In this document: piece by piece, positions 54,873-62,565 of the stretch
How positions within the stretch are numbered: the stretch's first letter is position 1
Layout: each line of letters opens with the position of its first letter
Assembly (NCBI GenBank): GCA_029258795.1
Contig: JAPDKB010000008.1
Coordinates: 2,955-66,954 of the forward strand
Source: an archaeon
Lineage (GTDB): Archaea > EX4484-52 > WAPT01
Direction of reading: 5' to 3'
Length of the DNA: 64,000 bases
The notes under the pieces: model-generated
Databases searched by the model: none
Seen by the model: only the letters and a program-made list of their open reading frames with translations
Told to the model about the DNA's origin: nothing
Program-made: the position numbers and the translations under genes

Positions 54873-54977
54873 AACTTTGGCTTTAAAAGGGTGAATTGAA
54901 AGCAAAAAAATTCGCTTCATGGATTTTTCAGTTAGGACGCATGTTGTGTTTGAGCAGATAGCTCCATGTTCTTCCAA

Positions 54978-55080
54978 ATCCCGGCTCCGGGGACAGTGCT
55001 TTCTCTCATCCTTCCTCTCCAGACGGAATTCTTATCCGTCGCATCCCCCATGAGAAAAGCGTCCATACCGGAGCCCGGAT
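54978..55080 (+). ncRNA. Free-standing BHB hairpin upstream of the tRNA-Gly-like gene
   Basis: Outer stem GGCTCCGG/CCGGAGCC, central GGAC/GTCC helix, AGT and ATA bulges, inner stem GCTTT(C)TCTCAT/ATGAGAAAAGC. Confidence 0.55.
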
Positions 55081-55085
55081 TCCAT

Positions 55086-55156
55086 GCGGCCGTGGTGTAG
55101 TGGGATCACGCCCCGTATCCAGCGGGGAAACGCCGGTTCGATTCCGGCCGGCCGCA
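55086..55156 (+). tRNA. tRNA-Gly(TCC)-like gene with non-canonical A33 and no CCA
   Basis: GCGGCCG/CGGCCGC acceptor, CCCCG-TA-TCC-AG-CGGGG, GCCGG-TTCGATT-CCGGC. Confidence 0.7.
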
Positions 55157-55186
55157 AATTCATGAAGATGTGTGGAGGTGGAGAAG

Positions 55187-55351
55187 ATGGCACCTCCTGA
55201 GAAATGTGATGAGTGCGGTTCCACCAACCTCAAGAAAGTTGTGATCGCCAAAATACCAACAGGGCCAATGGTCATTGGAGGGAGCACACCGTTAATGGAG
55301 TTAGCAGTATATCAATGTCGAGAGTGTAAAAACATAATGGGTCCCAAGTAA
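55187..55351 (+). CDS. Small Zn-ribbon protein, 54 aa
   Basis: Manual translation: MAPPEKCDECGSTNL...YQCRECKNIMGPK; GGAGGTG RBS. Confidence 0.65.
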   Translation: MAPPEKCDECGSTNLKKVVIAKIPTGPMVIGGSTPLMELAVYQCRECKNIMGPK

Positions 55352-55391
55352 AAGCAAGCTTTCAGACCATTTTATTTTTTCTTTTTATTTT

Positions 55392-55407
55392 TGGGAAATT
55401 TGTCCTG
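55392..55407. repeat. GGA-N6-TCC palindromic site
   Basis: TGGGAAATTTGTCCTG after a T-tract. Confidence 0.7.
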
Positions 55408-55598
55408 ATTTTGGTTTTGGATGAATGTGGAAGGGGCTCAGTTCAGCAAAAGGTTTATAAATTTTCGAGATATGTGTGACTAAAGAGTAACAAAAGTTGT
55501 CGATGCTGTAAATAATGGATCCCGTGAAAAAGCGGGATACCTAATTCTGGTTTAAGTAGTGGACAGCGTGAAGATGGCTGTCTCTATCTGTCCCGCAT

Positions 55599-55645
55599 GC
55601 CCCTGTTCAGGTTTTCTTTCCCGGGTGCAATTCCCGGCAAGGGTC
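55599..55645 (+). ncRNA. tRNA minihelix-like element (acceptor stem plus T-arm)
   Basis: GCCCCTG/CAAGGGT (6 of 7 pairs) enclosing a linker and CCGGG-TGCAATT-CCCGG. Confidence 0.55.
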
Positions 55646-55670
55646 GGAAGATATTAAAAGGAGGTGAAGA

Positions 55671-55973
55671 ATGATGGTGTCGTACTGCGCAGCATCGGAA
55701 ATGCTGAAGGGCACTTCCGAACTATGCGAGGTGTATCTGTTCGTTATACTCTATCTATCTGGATTATTGGCCGCATACGTCATCATAAAGCTGGAGAGAG
55801 AGCCAGAGATTCTGGAAAAGCTGACGAACAAACTGAATAGGAAGATAAGCTGGACTGGAAAGACGCTAGATAACATGGATGTTTGGGAAATAATAGTCAC
55901 GAGCATCATTCTGATTTCGCCAGTGCTATTTGTTATTCCATTCCTGCTAGGGTTCTGCCCGCGCTACTGCTAG
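55671..55973 (+). CDS. Orphan two-TM membrane protein
   Basis: GGAGGTGA RBS; two hydrophobic helices. Confidence 0.65.
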   Translation: MMVSYCAASEMLKGTSELCEVYLFVILYLSGLLAAYVIIKLEREPEILEKLTNKLNRKISWTGKTLDNMDVWEIIVTSIILISPVLFVIPFLLGFCPRYC

Positions 55974-56013
55974 CATAAATGTCCGCTAAGCTTTTCCCCA
56001 AATTTTTTGTCAT

Positions 56014-56141
56014 GCCCCCGTAAGGTAGCCAGGCATCCTTCCTTCCGGCGGATGGTTCGTTTTTCTGGAAAAGGAGGAGGTGCTATCCCGCCGCCACCTC
56101 ATTGCCGGAAGGAAACCCGGGTTCAAATCCCGGCGGGGGCA
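56014..56141 (+). ncRNA. tRNA-like element with the anticodon loop replaced by a ~55-nt insert
   Basis: GCCCCCG/CGGGGGC acceptor, AGG/CCT D-arm, 10-bp stem TCCTTCCGGC/GCCGGAAGGA, intact T-arm; no clear BHB or anticodon. Confidence 0.55.
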
Positions 56142-56185
56142 CTTTTCGAAATTTTTGGTGAAAACAAAACCTTCCTATTTTTTGT

Positions 56186-56231
56186 GCGGCCGAAAAAGCA
56201 CTGTGTCCGGGTGCAATTCCCGGCGGCCGCT
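56186..56231 (+). ncRNA. Perfect tRNA minihelix-like element
   Basis: GCGGCCG, 14-nt linker, CCGGG-TGCAATT-CCCGG, CGGCCGC. Confidence 0.65.
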
Positions 56232-56255
56232 GGAAAACTGTGAAAAAAGGAGGAG

Positions 56256-56534
56256 GTGAGAATTTTGAGGGAGAAAAAACCGGGGTCTGATTGGATATTG
56301 ATATGGGTTGAAAAGGATATTAAGAAAGAAGGTATGTTGAAGAAAATAATAGAGTATGCTAGGGAAAATGAGTTGATTGAGCAGGATAGAAAGTGGCTTC
56401 ACCCTACAGAAATAGAGGAAGTAGTAGGAAAGGTGCTAAAACACATAATGAAAGAAAAAGATCCTAACGCACCCCTGACACCAGAGAGGGCTGAAGAGCT
56501 CTATAACAAACACTATGTCACCCACGAACACTAA
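56256..56534 (+). CDS. Orphan hypothetical protein
   Basis: GGAGGAGGTGA RBS directly after the minihelix. Confidence 0.6.
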   Translation: MRILREKKPGSDWILIWVEKDIKKEGMLKKIIEYARENELIEQDRKWLHPTEIEEVVGKVLKHIMKEKDPNAPLTPERAEELYNKHYVTHEH

Positions 56535-56568
56535 TCGTCACCCATTAATTTTTATTTTTTGAAATTTA

Positions 56569-56584
56569 TGGGAAGAAATTCCCG
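56569..56584. repeat. GGA-N6-TCC palindromic site
   Basis: TGGGAAGAAATTCCCG. Confidence 0.7.
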
Positions 56585-56640
56585 TTTAATTGAGATTAAA
56601 AAATTTAAATGCGAGAAATAAAAAGCTGTGTGTTGTTGGT

Positions 56641-56762
56641 GGGCCGGTGGTCTAGCCTGGAAGGACGCTGGCTTCGCACGCCAGAGACCCCGGGTTCAAA
56701 TGCTGCGGAGCAAGCATGAATATGCTGGAACTCCGCAGCTGAGAATCCCGGCCGGTCCACCA
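56641..56762 (+). tRNA. tRNA-Ala(CGC) with 45-nt T-loop intron (56701-56745)
   Basis: G3:U70 pair, CTGGC-TT-CGC-AC-GCCAG, BHB TTCA/TGAG with AAT bulges, ACCA end. Confidence 0.93.
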
Positions 56763-56765
56763 CAT

Positions 56766-57440
56766 CTATTTCAGCACTTTTCCTGTCATTTTCCACCATA
56801 TGAGAAGGTCAAGCTCTCCCACCTGCATTTTCTTGTGATGTGCTATACCACACAACAACTTTTCAAGCTTGAGATAATCTTTTCTTTTTGAAAGATTTGG
56901 ATCCCACCAGAAGGGTATACACCCTTCTCGATAAAGCCAGTCGAGCACATGCCTGTCAACTATGGCAACATCAAGCTGTCCCGTGTTTCTTAAAAAGTGA
57001 CTTGCCTCCTTGTATCCAATACCCTTGATATTTTTAACCAGCCATTCCCGAACCATTGCACTTTCTTCCAGCTTGAGCACTTCCAGCACTTCATCCATCT
57101 TTTGCCATGCATCGATGATGTATTTTGCTTTTCTCTGATAAAACCTCACCCCACATTTTCTGAGAGCATTACGAATCCGTCGCTCATCCATATTGTCATT
57201 CTCCTTTTCAGCGAGCATCTTCTGAAACTTCAGACCCGCAATTGCTGACGAATTGGCGGCAGAGATGCAGAACGCAAGCTCGGAAAATATGGTGGCGTCA
57301 AACTCCGTATCAAAATATGGCTGAAAGTTGTGATGTGTTTTTCCTTTCCTTCCAAGCTCGATGAATTTAAGCACTCTATCTCTTATCGCTTTTATCACTT
57401 CAGGCCTCTCCTCCAGACGTTTGTAAGCATCGCAGGACAT
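56766..57440 (-). CDS. ogg: 8-oxoguanine N-glycosylase/DNA lyase
   Basis: FSELAFC, KGIGYKEASHFLRN, AIVDRH, W..MTGKVLK. Confidence 0.92.
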   Translation of the reverse strand: MSCDAYKRLEERPEVIKAIRDRVLKFIELGRKGKTHHNFQPYFDTEFDATIFSELAFCISAANSSAIAGLKFQKMLAEKENDNMDERRIRNALRKCGVRFYQRKAKYIIDAWQKMDEVLEVLKLEESAMVREWLVKNIKGIGYKEASHFLRNTGQLDVAIVDRHVLDWLYREGCIPFWWDPNLSKRKDYLKLEKLLCGIAHHKKMQVGELDLLIWWKMTGKVLK

Positions 57441-57829
57441 ATTCTGACAACTCCCTCAAAGTTCTCTATCTTTTTGTGCACTTCCATCAGCTCATCCATG
57501 CTGTTGCATACCACTTCCACTATCAAATTGTGATCACCACTGGTTATATATATCACTTCCACTTCCTTAAATCCCTTGAGTTTTTCGTAAACCTCAACCA
57601 GTTTTTCTGGTTTCACATCAATGCCAGTTAGCGATATTGCCATTCCTGCTCTCACGGGATCGATTAGAGCTTTGTATCCCAGCACAACACCGCTTGCTTC
57701 AAGCTTCTCTATCCTTTTTCTTATTGCTGCCTCACTTACCTTAAAAAGCTTTGCCAAAGCCACATTCGGGATTCTTGCGTTTCTTATCAGTGCTCTTATC
57801 AGGAGTTTATCGTTTATTCTATTCTTCAT
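57395..57829 (-). CDS. Lrp/AsnC family transcriptional regulator
   Basis: NARIP..LAK..VSEAAIRKRIEKL, SGDHNL. Confidence 0.92.
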   Translation of the reverse strand: MKNRINDKLLIRALIRNARIPNVALAKLFKVSEAAIRKRIEKLEASGVVLGYKALIDPVRAGMAISLTGIDVKPEKLVEVYEKLKGFKEVEVIYITSGDHNLIVEVVCNSMDELMEVHKKIENFEGVVRICPAMLTNVWRRGLK

Positions 57830-57919
57830 ATTTCGCATTTCGAACTTAAAGTTTTTAAATCTTTAAAATAATGTTTATATAAGATACCGAAATGTTCGAA
57901 TTTGTGAAGGTGGAAAAGA

Positions 57920-58504
57920 ATGGAGAAGACAATGGAGAATCTTGTCAAGGCGTTCATAGGGGAAAGTCAGGCAAGGAATCGCTATAACATGTATGCAAAG
58001 ATCGCCAAGAAAGAGGGATACGAGCAGATAGCAGAAATATTTGAAATCACAGCAGAAAATGAAAGAGAGCATGCAAAATGGCTCATGAAAATGATCCAAG
58101 AGTTGCTCAAAAAAATGAATAAGGGTATGAGCAGCATTAAGGTGGAGGCTGAAGCCCCTCTGGTTGTGGGAAACACAGTGGAGAACCTGAGGGCGGCTAT
58201 AGAGGGGGAGCACTATGAGAACAGTGAAATGTATCCTGAATTTGCAAGGATTGCGGAAGAGGAAGGGCTGAAAGATATTGGTGAAAGGTTGAGAGCAATA
58301 GCGAAAGCTGAAGAGCATCACGAGGAGCGTTACAGGAAGCTGTTTGAGCTTGTGGAAGCAGGTAAGTTCTTCAAGAGGGATAAGGAAGTTGTGTGGGTTT
58401 GCAGGAAGTGCGGCTATGTCCGTACTGGGACAGAACCTCCAGCCAAATGTCCTTCGTGTGACCACCCATACAATTACTTTCAGGTTAAGTGTGAGGAGTT
58501 TTGA
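57920..58504 (+). CDS. rbr: Rubrerythrin
   Basis: AFIGESQARNRY, ExxH motifs, C-terminal CRKCG...CPSC. Confidence 0.96.
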   Translation: MEKTMENLVKAFIGESQARNRYNMYAKIAKKEGYEQIAEIFEITAENEREHAKWLMKMIQELLKKMNKGMSSIKVEAEAPLVVGNTVENLRAAIEGEHYENSEMYPEFARIAEEEGLKDIGERLRAIAKAEEHHEERYRKLFELVEAGKFFKRDKEVVWVCRKCGYVRTGTEPPAKCPSCDHPYNYFQVKCEEF

Positions 58505-58629
58505 TTTTCCCTCTTCCTTCCATTTATTCTCTGGAGTCGTTTAAAGCATTTACATTTAATTAGTGAAAAAACTGATGTGCAGGAAAGAAATATATTTTTG
58601 TTCTGCCCACCTTAATCTTGGTGAGTGTC

Positions 58630-58800
58630 ATGGAGAACATAGCGGAGATTAAGGAGAGGATCTTGAAAGCTGGCCTCGGGGTTCAGACGGAAAAGGTGGA
58701 AAAAGATAATGAGCAGTTCTGCCCAGAGTGCGGTATGCGGCTTGTGCCAGCAGAGGGCTGTGTATTCTGTCCGTCATGCGGGTGGAGTCCGTGTAAATAG
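58630..58800 (+). CDS. Small Zn-ribbon protein
   Basis: CPECG...EGCVFCPSCGWSPC, resembles the C-terminal ribbon of class II ribonucleotide reductases. Confidence 0.65.
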   Translation: MENIAEIKERILKAGLGVQTEKVEKDNEQFCPECGMRLVPAEGCVFCPSCGWSPCK

Positions 58801-58813
58801 TTAGGGTGGTGTT

Positions 58814-59386
58814 ATGACGAGTGATCTTGAATGCATATTTTGCAAGATAATAGAGAAGAAAATTCCTGCAGCGGTGATTTATGAGGATCCTTATGTCATC
58901 TCATTTCTTGATATAAATCCTCGATTTAAGGGGCATGCACTCGTCATTCCAAAGGTGCACGTCTCAACCCTTGATGAGTTGGGGGATGAGGCTTTGGCAC
59001 ACCTTTTCGTGGTGGTGAAGCATGTTGCCAAGAATTTGAAGGAAACGCTTGGCGCGGATGGCTACAACATCATAAGCAACAACGGAAGTGTTGCAGGACA
59101 GGTTGTTCCACACTTGCACATCCATGTTGTTCCGCGATACGCTGATGAGAAGAAAGGAATTGGTTTTGAAGCCACATTCCCTGTTGATGAAGAGGCCAAG
59201 AACAAACTGCACGAAATTGCTGAAAAGGCCAAGATAAAGCACGAGATAAAACCAGCATTTAGGAAAGATGATAAAGCAGATACGAGCGAAAAAGAGGAAA
59301 AGAAGGATGGAAAGGAAGAAAATAAAGAAGCATTACCATATGAAAGCGAGTATTTTGAGGACAACGGTGTGCCGAAGTTCAGGTGA
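58814..59386 (+). CDS. HIT family hydrolase
   Basis: CIFCKI, GHALVIPK, HLHIHVVPR. Confidence 0.95.
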   Translation: MTSDLECIFCKIIEKKIPAAVIYEDPYVISFLDINPRFKGHALVIPKVHVSTLDELGDEALAHLFVVVKHVAKNLKETLGADGYNIISNNGSVAGQVVPHLHIHVVPRYADEKKGIGFEATFPVDEEAKNKLHEIAEKAKIKHEIKPAFRKDDKADTSEKEEKKDGKEENKEALPYESEYFEDNGVPKFR

Positions 59387-59414
59387 GCTCTACTTTTTGC
59401 TTTTTTTATTTTAA

Positions 59415-59430
59415 TGGGATTAATTTCCTA
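59415..59430. repeat. GGA-N6-TCC palindromic site
   Basis: TGGGATTAATTTCCTA between a T-tract and an A-tract. Confidence 0.7.
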
Positions 59431-59449
59431 AAAAACAAAGAAAAAAAAA

Positions 59450-59665
59450 TCAAGAAATCTTCTTTAAGCGAATTTTGTAAATCTCTCCTTCATTGGTGAT
59501 ACTTGAAATACACCAGCTATAACCTTCCGGCCATATTTCTCCATTCATCCCTATTATTTTGTTGTCCTTTACCCTCCCCCACGTTACGATCTCTCCCGCG
59601 CGTTTATCCTTGCTAACGGCACCGCATACCTCTAGCAAGCCAAGTAAGAACTCGTTATCCTCCAA
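59450..59665 (-). CDS. Orphan small protein
   Basis: GGAGGTGAG RBS plus TTG start. Confidence 0.5.
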   Translation of the reverse strand: MEDNEFLLGLLEVCGAVSKDKRAGEIVTWGRVKDNKIIGMNGEIWPEGYSWCISSITNEGEIYKIRLKKIS

Positions 59666-59726
59666 TCTTACTCACCTCCATCCGGAATTGATCTTTTGCT
59701 AAAAGCGCATCTTCAAAAAAAGAGAA

Positions 59727-60743
59727 TTATTGTTGCGGCAGTATTATTGGTGGTGCCACTGGCTCGGTAAGATTTACTCCGGGGTAGAAGTTAGATGGTG
59801 CAGGCACTATGATTATTGCGTTGTTCTCCGATTCCGCGAACTTCTGAAGCACCTGTAGATAGTACCACTGCACGTATTCTGGATTTCTTCTCAGCGATTC
59901 TCCAATTATCTGGTTAGCCTTTGCTATACCCTCTGCCTCAACCTGCTTTCTTTCTGCCTCTCTCTTTTCTTTCTCAAGAATGTACTGCATTCTCTGGGCT
60001 TCTTGTTGTGCCTGCAGTTTAGCCTCGATTGCATCCTTCAGTCGGGTTGGAAGTTCTATTTTTCTCAGGTACACTCCCGTGACATCAAAGTACTGTGATA
60101 GTCTCTTCTCCAGCTCATTGTGAATTGATGCTTCCACTTCACTTCTTTTTGATCCATAAATTTCCTCTGCGTCGTACTGGGAAATCACATCCCTCACCGC
60201 GCTTCTAATGGTTGCTATCTTCCATTGCTCCAGATAGTCCTGATTCTTGAACGTCTTTGCGATTTCTTCCAGCTTGTCCTTTCTTATCTTTGTCGCAACC
60301 GAGAGATCAATTCGAATCTCCAGTGCGTCCTTGCTCAGAACCACGATGCTCGGATAGACAAGCCTAGAGGTAGCTATTTCCTCGGATTCGGCGGAAGCTG
60401 TGGCGGGTATCATTTCCTCCTTGCTTACAAAATCGACGGTTCTCACACCAACATAATAGATCTCCACGCTCTGTGTTAGTGGGTTCCTCCAGTGAATGCC
60501 GGGTTCTGCAGTACCTACGAATTTTCCGAACTCTTTGATCACCGCTTCTTCCGTTTGGTCTACCGTGTAGACTCCTAGCGCGCAGAAAGCTATTATGATT
60601 GCAATTGCACCAGCAATTACCCACTTCAACCACCATGGCCTTCGCTTTTTCTCTTCAGATCTTCTTTCACTCCCTCCACTCCAACCTTCAACTCTAGCTT
60701 CCTCCGGAGAAATAGGTCCATCCATCTCCAAGGGGTCTTCCAT
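59727..60743 (-). CDS. SPFH/band 7 (prohibitin-like) membrane protein
   Basis: TM helix, EFGK..EPGIH, IRSAVRDV, AIEAK..AQQEAQR. Confidence 0.93.
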   Translation of the reverse strand: MEDPLEMDGPISPEEARVEGWSGGSERRSEEKKRRPWWLKWVIAGAIAIIIAFCALGVYTVDQTEEAVIKEFGKFVGTAEPGIHWRNPLTQSVEIYYVGVRTVDFVSKEEMIPATASAESEEIATSRLVYPSIVVLSKDALEIRIDLSVATKIRKDKLEEIAKTFKNQDYLEQWKIATIRSAVRDVISQYDAEEIYGSKRSEVEASIHNELEKRLSQYFDVTGVYLRKIELPTRLKDAIEAKLQAQQEAQRMQYILEKEKREAERKQVEAEGIAKANQIIGESLRRNPEYVQWYYLQVLQKFAESENNAIIIVPAPSNFYPGVNLTEPVAPPIILPQQ

Positions 60744-60750
60744 CTTTCTA

Positions 60751-60808
60751 ACCTCCCCCGGGCCGCTATTCCCTGACTTGCGTCAGGGGCGACACCCGGT
60801 GTGGGAGG
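60751..60808 (-). promoter_or_regulatory. Structured 5' leader sequestering the RBS of the SPFH gene
   Basis: Reverse strand: ACCTCCC...CCGGG...CCCTGAC-GCAA-GTCAGGG...CCCGG-GGGAGGT. Confidence 0.5.
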
Positions 60809-61086
60809 TAGAGAAGTATCACTACAATACTCATATCTTTCGTCTCGAGGTAAGAAGTCAGATTTTGTTTTTAACAGAAACCGTTTTTATCTAAACCTTT
60901 ATATTTTTTACTATTTGGTGGTTCTTTCAGGTTAACATGATCTTCAATCTCTCTCTGGCTAACAAATAAATTCTTGACTGAGGATATACTTACTGAACAT
61001 CAATAAAAGTTGTGGAACGTGTGGGAGCTGTTTCTTGTCCAAGTAGCTTTCAGAATATGATTGATGTGTCCCGCTCTGTCCCGTGT

Positions 61087-61135
61087 GCTCCCGTGCGAGC
61101 CCTGCTTGTGCCCGGGTTCAAATCCCGGCGGGAGA
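61087..61135 (+). ncRNA. tRNA minihelix-like element with a single internal hairpin
   Basis: CTCCCG/CGGGAG, GCGAGC-CCT-GCTTGT hairpin, CCGGG-TTCAAAT-CCCGG. Confidence 0.55.
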
Positions 61136-61515
61136 TGATATGTGGCGGGAGATGAATTTTGGAATGCCGCCGGGGGGCGCCAGCCCGGTGGTTTGTGACC
61201 GCCTACTTTTCGGCGGTACTGGCGCACAAAAGTTTGTAATGGTTAGAGGGGGGTGGATATGGAAGCTCCAGGCTTCGAGCTAATATTCGCAATAATTGGA
61301 CTTTTAGCAACTCTGTGGTTATGAAAAAAGCGATTACAAGAGAGGAGGTGAAAATGTGCTGAGGCGAAGGGATGGAGGCCCCATCGACAGAACGGGCCAA
61401 TGAATTATAGTGATTCTAATGACTCTCACTTTTGTGTACATACTACTGGGTGCTGTGAATATTCTTAGAGAGCTCATGAGCTAAACAATTTCCCAATTTT
61501 TTATTTTTCATAATT

Positions 61516-61531
61516 TGGGAAATATTTCCCA
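61516..61531. repeat. GGA-N6-TCC palindromic site (perfect palindrome)
   Basis: TGGGAAATATTTCCCA with extended inverted flanks. Confidence 0.78.
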
Positions 61532-61563
61532 TAAAATGAAAAAATAAAAAATGGGAAGGAAGT

Positions 61564-62370
61564 TCAGGTTGTGAAGTGTCCCTCCTCCGCAAACCTGACA
61601 AGCTGCATCTTCTTTTCTACCTCTTCCATCAGCTTTCCTTTCATATTTTCGACATCGCGTTTGATGGAGCTCTCTATTCCCTCAAGCCGCTTGAACAGCA
61701 TAACGTCCGTGTTCGCTACGGACATTTTGAGATGGTGGGTTAATCTTTCCACCGCCATCATTCTCAAAGTATCTCTGAATACGTCTGGAACCTCATTTCC
61801 ATTTTCTATGAGCCCCTCAAATTCTTGAGTCAGGTCTACCCGGACTTTATCCAGAATATCCCGCAACATGGCTTCGCCCAAAAGGGACTTTATTTGCTTC
61901 ACCACCTCTTCGCTCAGCAGGTATCTCAGTGTGTGGTAAGCATCCCCAACCATGACAGGTATCTCTTTCTCCGATACTGCTCTGCACCTCATCTCCCTCG
62001 CTTTTTCCAGCAGAATCTCTGCTTCCGTGTAATCCATGGGAACTGGTGCTGCCAGAATTTTAGCATCGGACACTACGACACCCTTTTCTTTTATGTACGT
62101 TGCAGCAATCTCTATTATTTTGTTTATTTCCCAGACATCCTTGTCCAATTTGTTTTTCCGGCAGAACTCCGCCAATTCCAAGATATCCACAGCATATCTT
62201 TCCTCCAGCAGCGCTCTCAAAGAAAGCACTTCCTCCTCGCTACTCCTTACATCTTCCACTACCGGTTTCTCAAACTCTACTTCCTCTCCACTCCCTACCA
62301 AACTCTCACCTCCTGAAGCCAGGGGCGCTCCGGACTCGAACCGGAGAAAAAACATCCCGTTGCGCCCCAT
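61564..62370 (-). CDS. Hypothetical helical protein
   Basis: Long ORF with host-like codon usage; start uncertain. Confidence 0.7.
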   Translation of the reverse strand: MGRNGMFFLRFESGAPLASGGESLVGSGEEVEFEKPVVEDVRSSEEEVLSLRALLEERYAVDILELAEFCRKNKLDKDVWEINKIIEIAATYIKEKGVVVSDAKILAAPVPMDYTEAEILLEKAREMRCRAVSEKEIPVMVGDAYHTLRYLLSEEVVKQIKSLLGEAMLRDILDKVRVDLTQEFEGLIENGNEVPDVFRDTLRMMAVERLTHHLKMSVANTDVMLFKRLEGIESSIKRDVENMKGKLMEEVEKKMQLVRFAEEGHFTT

Positions 62371-62565
62371 GAAGATAAGTTGAGACGAGGTAGAGCATAG
62401 GTAGAAGTAGACCATCCCATACAAACCGTCTCAAGAGCCCTTGTAGTTATTTGACAGCCCCCTATTTCGGGTTTAAAATTTTTAATCATTGCTGAAAGAA
62501 TTGAGAGTGTAAAACGCCAAAGTAAAAAATTTAAGGTGCATAAATGATAAGCTGTGTGATGCCAC

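Follow-up and report, generated by a model that had tools for sequence, protein, structure and literature searches.

What is left of a tRNA when its D and anticodon arms give way to a short foreign linker, and why would such a remnant stand in front of a small gene? This question is raised by a window of archaeal chromosome, meaning here the whole 64,000-nucleotide (nt) stretch of DNA that was analysed (G000:C3:2955-66954). It belongs to G000, a 1.17-megabase (Mb) DPANN genome that is 96% complete and whose DNA is best represented in hydrothermal-vent metagenomes; among the sequencing runs listed as containing 54900-57000 there was no RNA run. An initial annotation of the window had noticed three tRNA minihelices, each an acceptor stem plus a T-arm, in front of small open reading frames (ORFs), and had offered three kinds of function: mRNA-processing tags, decoy RNAs, and primers or heads of mobile units. 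All three minihelices were found where it had placed them, the third ending at 61136. Together with a fourth in the same genome and one each in two relatives of the genus, G001 and G002, they form a set of six elements. These are read here, tentatively, as tRNA-derived signals for RNase P and RNase Z that resemble the t-elements of plant mitochondria and head accessory gene units.

Anatomy and genetic setting of the minihelices

Each of the six elements combines an acceptor stem of 7 base pairs (bp), a linker of 11-18 nt, a T-stem of 5 bp and a T-loop of 7 nt within a length of 43-50 nt. As had been described for the first three (E1-E3), both acceptor strands and the T-arm are kept while a linker of 14-18 nt replaces the rest (15, 14 and 18 nt, respectively); the acceptor 3' strand lies directly behind the T-stem and is followed by an unpaired discriminator. 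E1 (55599-55645, plus strand) consists of the acceptor 5' strand (55599-55605), a 15-nt linker (55606-55620), the T-arm (55621-55637), the acceptor 3' strand (55638-55644) and a discriminator C at 55645. It is the weakest copy, with five Watson-Crick pairs, one G.U and one C.A mismatch in the acceptor stem next to a T-stem of 5 bp. E2 (56186-56231, plus strand; 14-nt linker, T-arm 56207-56223, discriminator 56231) does have the perfect 7-bp and 5-bp stems ascribed to it, and its acceptor stem letters are those of a tRNA-Gly(TCC) gene at 55085-55157. In E3 (61087-61136, plus strand), six of seven acceptor pairs form, the terminal one being G.A, and the T-arm (61112-61128) is perfect; the 18-nt linker folds into its own hairpin, and a 12-nt direct repeat of the element's own 3' strand follows. 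The additional E4 (62321-62368, minus strand) came from a descriptor scan of G000 and has a perfect 7-bp acceptor stem, a 16-nt linker, a T-arm at 62345-62329 and its discriminator at 62321. In G001 and G002, the single element of each genome (L005:919-963 and L006:2143-2185, minus strand) occupies the interval from an RsmF-type PUA gene to tRNA-Ala(CGC), with an acceptor stem that is perfect in one and holds a single G.U in the other.

All six elements stack the acceptor stem on a T-arm with a tRNA-type T-loop, which is the fold that characterises t-elements. T-loop positions 54, 56, 58 and 60 are invariant, and the 17-nt T-arm is identical in E1 and E2 (exact at 55621-55637 and 56207-56223). 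When this T-arm was searched for with up to 3 mismatches, 0.07 matches were expected, and 4 matches were reached in 0 of 100 shuffles. The discriminators vary (C, T, T, T, G and C), which argues against a kept aminoacylation identity, while the base after them is G, not C, in every case. CCA is encoded in none of the six, compared with 13 of the 17 true tRNA genes checked. A T at position -1 is likewise common to all six; about half of the true tRNA genes listed also have it, making it weak as an RNase P context.

Other classes of tRNA-like sequence were considered and rejected. A canonical tRNA gene is ruled out by the short linkers in place of the D and anticodon arms and by the lack of matches: ARAGORN made no tRNA call on E1-E3, and Rfam did not call them tRNA either at the gathering score or at expectation values (E) up to 1. 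The reading as a cloverleaf with an intron was rejected as well. A piece of a split or permuted tRNA does not fit, as both acceptor strands pair within one 43-50-nt piece that has no anticodon-arm strand (a partner piece was not searched for).

Every element lies on the same strand as the ORF downstream, and four of the six (E1, E2, E4 and the element of G001) are placed 19-33 nt ahead of a start codon that is served by a strong Shine-Dalgarno site. The distance of about 25 nt first noted for E1 and E2 holds: E1 ends 25 nt before ATG 55671, and E2 ends 24 nt before GTG 56256 or 33 nt before the in-frame TTG 56265, the latter being better spaced behind the Shine-Dalgarno site. Behind E1, the Shine-Dalgarno site (55660-55667) and ORF1, which encodes a hydrophobic protein of 100 amino acids with no family, span 55660-55973 on the plus strand. 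Behind E2, the corresponding stretch (56252-56534, plus strand; Shine-Dalgarno site 56252-56259) carries ORF2, of about 90 amino acids from either start, whose product belongs to an orphan family. The ORF of E4 (TTG 62301, 245 amino acids) and its Shine-Dalgarno site (62314-62306) span 61564-62314 on the minus strand.

The units resemble one another beyond their heads. Four of the elements (E2, E4 and those of G001 and G002) precede members of this one orphan protein family, with 25-40% identity. The G001 and G002 elements head a protein of about 100 amino acids that is 39-40% identical to ORF2, and the first ~100 residues of the E4 ORF are 25% identical to that protein; three of the four family members begin with the same five residues. 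Leader motifs, the Shine-Dalgarno site and the first protein residues are common to E4 and the G001 and G002 units, a short box just upstream is common to E1, E3 and the G001 and G002 elements, and the E1 linker resembles that of the G002 element. Judged by these shared parts, the minihelix-gene units are homologous as complete units. By eye, TATA-like boxes that may serve as promoters lie 50-130 nt upstream of E1, E3, E4 and the G001 and G002 elements. For instance, the box at 55463-55470 (plus strand), ~130 nt before E1, is the presumed promoter of the E1 unit, and that at 62472-62478 (minus strand), ~105 nt before E4, resembles the box before tRNA-Ala at 56603-56609.

For the ORFs behind the minihelices, Pfam gave no family (13 ORFs of the locus were scanned), PADLOC no match, the ESM Atlas no usable match and PHROGs one weak match only (E 0.0079). 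An AlphaFold model of ORF2, with a predicted local distance difference test score (pLDDT) of 71, had no match in the PDB at E up to 0.001, and the structure model of the E4 ORF is poor (pLDDT 51). The ORF2 family is confined to the genus: three proteins were found in a set of 5.8 billion, and three in the 42 genomes sampled from the phylum. Genome contigs held two true loci and one spurious one, metagenome contigs a single weak match of 22 residues, and viral contigs no match.

Chance and compensatory change

To judge pairing against chance, a strict descriptor (tRNA-type T-arm, 8-25-nt linker, 7-bp acceptor stem) was applied to G000, with first-order Markov genomes as the control. Perfect matches number two in the 1.17-Mb genome (E2 and E4) against none in 40 Markov genomes. 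With up to one non-Watson-Crick acceptor pair, there are three against a mean of 0.95 in 40 simulated genomes, and a looser descriptor gives nine against a mean of 3.15 in 20. E2 is beyond chance in its own right. Given these real and simulated counts, pairing by itself does not set E1 and E3 apart from chance; their case lies in context, as E1 carries the exact T-arm of E2, both have flank motifs of the copies in other genomes, and position supports them too. Folding energies differ in the same set: E3 has a z of -2.7 (1 of 200 shuffles as good), E2 of -1.9 (11 of 200) and E1 of -0.3 (74 of 200).

Comparison between elements is more informative about the stems. E4 and the G001 element differ by four double changes (three acceptor pairs and one T-stem pair) with no broken pair, and E1 and the G002 element by three double changes, one wobble and one mismatch. 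At the third T-stem pair, three elements have G-C and the other three C-G. In the six-sequence alignment, 97.2% of 72 cells are paired and double changes occur in 7 of 12 pairs, a combination reached by none of 500 shuffles; slid controls are 37-54% paired. The intergenic DNA of G000 is no longer alignable to that of G001 and G002, with only genes and tRNA-Ala matching, and a neutral two-stem structure of 12 bp would therefore not be expected to survive. Selection on structure, as the initial annotation had suggested, is thus supported by the sequences of homologous units in three genomes, in which both stems seem to have been kept by compensatory double changes while flanks and proteins diverged.

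tRNA relatives, distribution and surroundings

The minihelices look tRNA-derived, and the locus can be arranged as a graded series of possible stages, from a complete tRNA through one whose bottom half is remodelled and a minihelix in which a residual hairpin is left to minihelices that are bare. The tRNA-Gly(TCC)-type gene (55085-55157, plus strand) has the layout of the minihelix-gene units with a full cloverleaf: it lacks CCA and is followed by a Shine-Dalgarno site and ATG 55187 of a 54-amino-acid zinc-ribbon ORF. Two of 17 true tRNA genes have a Shine-Dalgarno site and start codon within ~31 nt downstream, and this is one of them. It carries A at position 33, where U is near-universal in tRNAs, and no orthologue was found in the two genus relatives; the gene may not be a normal decoder.

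A second relative, E5 (56014-56141, plus strand), lies 44 nt before E2 and is derived from tRNA-Glu. It keeps the acceptor stem, T-arm and a D-like arm around an aberrant middle of ~92 nt, and it matches a tRNA-Glu(CTC) of the same genus exactly over its first 9 and last 26 nt. The middle contains the D-like arm and a long hairpin, in which 14 nt of the ORF2 Shine-Dalgarno region recur as a copy. ARAGORN reports E5 as a Gly(GCC) tRNA with a 57-nt intron, which conflicts with its tRNA-Glu ends, and no single-intron solution sought by hand led to a normal anticodon loop. The genome has two proper tRNA-Glu genes at other places.

A covariance model built from the six elements was searched against 41 relatives, the family and a 42-genome sample of the phylum. 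It retrieved the six training sequences at 49-56 bits, covering all three genomes of the genus, and nine weaker matches proved to be 3' halves of ordinary tRNAs. On these searches, the minihelix family is real, very small and genus-restricted. Within the genus its slots vary. The slot from RsmF-PUA to tRNA-Ala holds one unit in G001 and in G002 and three in G000, and in G001 the slot from HIT to IleRS holds an unrelated 307-amino-acid ORF instead. In contigs from two runs of another study, 59386 and 61497 are separated by just 8 letters of different sequence, which points to a related strain without the SPFH gene and E3 (59387-61496); in the contigs of a second study, the E3-E4 region is almost unchanged. 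Since the slots that hold the units differ from one genus member to the next, heads of mobile units may still be a candidate among the functions first proposed, while nothing supports the decoy and primer ideas specifically.

Several other features of the locus and genome were recorded. In viral contigs, 96 stretches contain the exact T-arm of E1 and E2, including its G at T-loop position 55. Among the 80 of these that are listed, 7 nt and NCCA follow the T-arm in 40, as at tmRNA (transfer-messenger RNA) and tRNA-like 3' ends, and a minihelix-like 5' partner lies 6-35 nt upstream of it in three. Downstream of E3, the 21-codon frame at 61259-61324 (plus strand) encodes a Pro-Gly-Phe motif and then a hydrophobic stretch, by eye like a stand-alone PGF-type C-terminal sorting signal. 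A T-rich tract followed by a GGGAAATTT..CC motif stands after genes at 55375-55405, 56549-56567 and 61477-61618, and also on contigs C3 and C4; the copy at 61477-61618 is a long AT-rich palindrome between convergent genes. This motif is probably terminator-associated. A promoter-like block of 39 nt, with an A-rich part, a TTTAA box and AAGCTGTGTG, is found upstream of both tRNA-Ala (56597-56635) and the IleRS gene (62523-62561), with 77% identity.

tRNA introns also stand out. The tRNA-Ala(CGC) gene (56641-56762, plus strand) has a ~45-nt intron in its T-loop (~56702-56746), its orthologues in the two relatives have none, and look-alikes of the intron occur in at least six other places in the genome. 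In the tRNA-Trp(CCA) gene (C2:24473 region, L053), a long anticodon-loop intron carries C/D-box-like motifs, and a second intron, in the T-loop, is present in G000 alone. Elsewhere in the assembly, a foreign origin or mis-binning is possible for contigs C10, C12, C17 and C11: the G+C content of three short contigs is 28-31%, compared with ~44% in the remainder, and C11 carries four tRNA genes within 500 nt.

Proposed processing signals and competing explanations

The half of the tRNA that the elements keep is described as the part seen by RNase P, RNase Z, the CCA-adding enzyme and many synthetases (PMC4033280). According to PMC7479834, archaeal RNase Z cuts after the discriminator whatever its base, is inhibited by cytidines that follow, and needs an acceptor stem and a mature 5' end. 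A precedent in mRNA processing comes from plant mitochondria, where t-elements upstream of cox1, rps4 and ccmFN1 are reported to define mRNA 5' ends, with non-encoded C/A gained by the elements once they are released (PMC1920247). It is this combination of a kept half recognised by tRNA enzymes, the properties of archaeal RNase Z and the plant precedent that suggests t-element-like signals. All three enzymes are encoded in the genome, as shown by matches for the RNase P RNA (133.6 bits), RNase Z (359 bits; G000:C2:180959-181864) and the CCA-adding enzyme (420.5 bits). Among the functions first proposed, the mRNA-processing tag seems to fit the anatomy best, because the elements share the strand of the gene, lie close upstream of a Shine-Dalgarno site and start codon, lack CCA and have G after the discriminator, and because these enzymes are present.

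In the processing reading, tRNA-derived top-half modules would be transcribed within the 5' region of small accessory genes and recognised by the enzymes that process tRNA ends. We infer a transcript of leader, minihelix and mRNA that starts from a promoter 50-130 nt upstream. RNase P would cut at the 5' end of the minihelix and remove the leader, and RNase Z would cut after the discriminator. The products would be an mRNA with a defined 5' untranslated region of 19-33 nt that carries the Shine-Dalgarno site, with whatever effect this may have on expression, and a free RNA of ~47 nt that could be tagged by the CCA-adding enzyme.

Several points weigh against this reading. E3 has no nearby Shine-Dalgarno site and ORF, its next ORF being the 21-codon frame 122 nt downstream, and the G002 element lies ~115 nt from its Shine-Dalgarno site. 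The minimum-energy fold of E1 lacks the acceptor stem, which is weak. The covariation rests on few events, since there are only six elements and two of them are close orthologues, and E4 was ascertained for structure, as its scan demanded pairing. In addition, parts of the stems may have been copied from tRNA genes rather than kept by selection: the acceptor stem of tRNA-Gly(TCC) is carried by the G001 and G002 elements as well as by E2, the T-arm of E1 and E2 is one base off that of tRNA-Gly(GCC), and 22 nt of E3 (61111-61132) equal the 3' part of E5 and of tRNA-Glu-type 3' ends. The covariance model found nothing beyond its training set, with 0 of 39 other genomes in the phylum sample; a wider spread across DPANN, for whose genomes the initial annotation had proposed a covariation test, was not seen in this sample. 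On the enzymatic side, leaders of 50-130 nt would make RNase Z dependent on prior cleavage by RNase P, given the mature 5' end it is described to need, and that archaeal RNase P would accept a substrate without a D-arm is an assumption here. Selected predicted tRNA-like elements of Haloferax, studied by Holzle et al. in 2012, were reportedly not cleaved in vitro.

Known tRNA-like elements provide a further measure. The mascRNA at the 3' end of MALAT1 is a tRNA-like fold within a longer transcript; RNase P and RNase Z cleave it, and it receives a CCA tag. Unlike the minihelices here, it is eukaryotic, cloverleaf-like and located at the 3' end of a non-coding RNA. The closer likeness is to the t-elements of plant mitochondria (Hanic-Joyce et al. 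1990; Forner et al. 2007, PMC1920247), which are described as tRNA-like, with a conserved T-arm, and just upstream of mRNAs, as here. Those elements are reported to be cut by RNase Z and/or RNase P (PMC1920247), as is proposed for the present ones. In organelle genomes, the plant t-elements are said to form non-canonical cloverleaves of ~74 nt, compared with the 43-50 nt of acceptor stem and T-arm on an archaeal chromosome, 19-33 nt before a Shine-Dalgarno site or start and with one orphan gene family. An archaeal example is the t-element of Haloferax volcanii reported by Holzle et al. in 2008 and 2012 (see PMC4326828), which is said to lie inside a longer transcript and to be used by tRNase Z (and RNase P) in forming the end of the RNA next to it; it precedes 5S rRNA, whereas the elements here precede protein-coding genes. 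In the literature searched, no account of elements of this kind in DPANN archaea was found, and the family may represent a new case of known tRNA-like processing elements.

The minihelices could instead be inert relics of tRNA genes that once headed tRNA-mRNA units, with the D and anticodon arms deleted and the pairing owed to youth or patchy copying. For E1, E3 and E5 this is possible. E5 is a tRNA-Glu copy with a wrecked middle in a genome that has two proper tRNA-Glu genes elsewhere, E3 is two changes away from tRNA-Glu-type stems, one compensated and the other not, and mismatches in E1 and E3, the odd A33 of the local tRNA-Gly(TCC) and confinement to one genus all agree with decay. However, relics are hard to square with the compensated divergence seen in E2, E4 and the elements of G001 and G002: the E4 unit and those of G001 and G002 stand at 25% protein identity with flanks that barely align, yet show four double changes and no broken pair. 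Moreover, no tRNA of this genome was found that could have donated the acceptor stem of E1 or of E4, and repeated deletion of exactly the bottom half, leaving 11-18 nt, is unlikely by chance. As an account of the whole set, relics are thus considered unlikely. A related question is whether the RNA itself, rather than the mRNA end, is the product: a free tRNA mimic of ~47 nt could, after processing and CCA addition, bind or titrate a tRNA-binding enzyme or nuclease in trans, with the ORFs merely co-transcribed. This would suit the invariant T-loop core, a fold equal to the tRNA part that PMC4033280 describes as seen by these enzymes, the distance of E3 and the G002 element from a Shine-Dalgarno site, and the recurrence of the same 17-nt T-arm in viral tRNA-like and tmRNA-like ends. 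Yet the discriminator and acceptor sequences vary freely, so that no single aminoacylation or binding identity is kept, and the one to four copies per genome always accompany the same gene units. No partner protein can be named either, as the ORFs match no family and no solved fold, and a role in trans appears improbable.

Finally, the inverted repeats might act as DNA, marking the borders of accessory cassettes as recombination or attachment sites beside tRNA genes, in which case RNA structure would be irrelevant. Supporting this, the units sit in two slots that vary among genus members (RsmF-PUA/tRNA-Ala and HIT/IleRS, as well as the 59386-61497 junction), E3 is followed by the repeat of its 3' strand, and tRNA fragments are described as common at archaeal island borders (PMC9897764). 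The attR-type partial tRNA genes of that account are, like the elements here, pieces near tRNAs in variable regions that tRNA finders mis-call or miss. Such fragments are portrayed there as one contiguous tRNA part, present as a direct repeat at the far end of an integrase-bearing island, whereas the acceptor strands here flank a foreign linker, no integrase is present and three of four elements have no matching full tRNA. An attL or attR fragment was rejected on closer comparison: the best tRNA matches of E1, E2 and E4 cover the T-arm only (15-20 nt), and although E3 and E5 share 22 nt, the 5 kb between them, like the genes between tRNA-like copies in general, are syntenic housekeeping DNA. 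The misfit with an att-site duplication noted at the outset stands, as no long direct repeat joins E1, E2 or E4 to a full tRNA and no integrase or recombinase domain was found in the 13 locus ORFs scanned; the only tyrosine recombinase match in the genome (PF00589) is on another contig, C7. An att scar would need neither the retention of both acceptor strands and the T-loop consensus nor a fixed orientation to genes, and we regard a purely DNA-level role as very improbable.

The reading as processing signals can be extended to a bolder proposal, to which we give little credence, that the top half is a portable head of accessory cassettes in this DPANN genus, combining leader detachment, RNA release and recombination into slots. 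Cleavage would detach a pyrimidine-rich leader able to mask the Shine-Dalgarno site, tying translation to tRNA-processing capacity, and would at the same time free the CCA-taggable 47-nt RNA, while the likeness to tRNA T-arms would let cassettes recombine into slots beside tRNA genes. In E4, E2 and the G001 unit, folds in context do show pairing between leader and Shine-Dalgarno region. The duplex energies computed were not better than those of dinucleotide shuffles of the leader, of which 127, 47, 173, 35 and 237 of 300 were at least as good, and compared with 167 other genes only E4 stands out (1.8%; the rest 17-44%). If true, the portable head would parallel, on an archaeal chromosome, the tRNA-punctuation principle of mitochondria and couple it to the mobility of cassettes.

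For the processing reading itself, if the cleavages occur, the 5' ends of archaeal protein-coding mRNAs would be made by the tRNA-processing machinery at a minimal tRNA mimic, providing a natural example of how little tRNA this machinery needs. The graded series within one locus could also show how such signals arise from tRNA genes.

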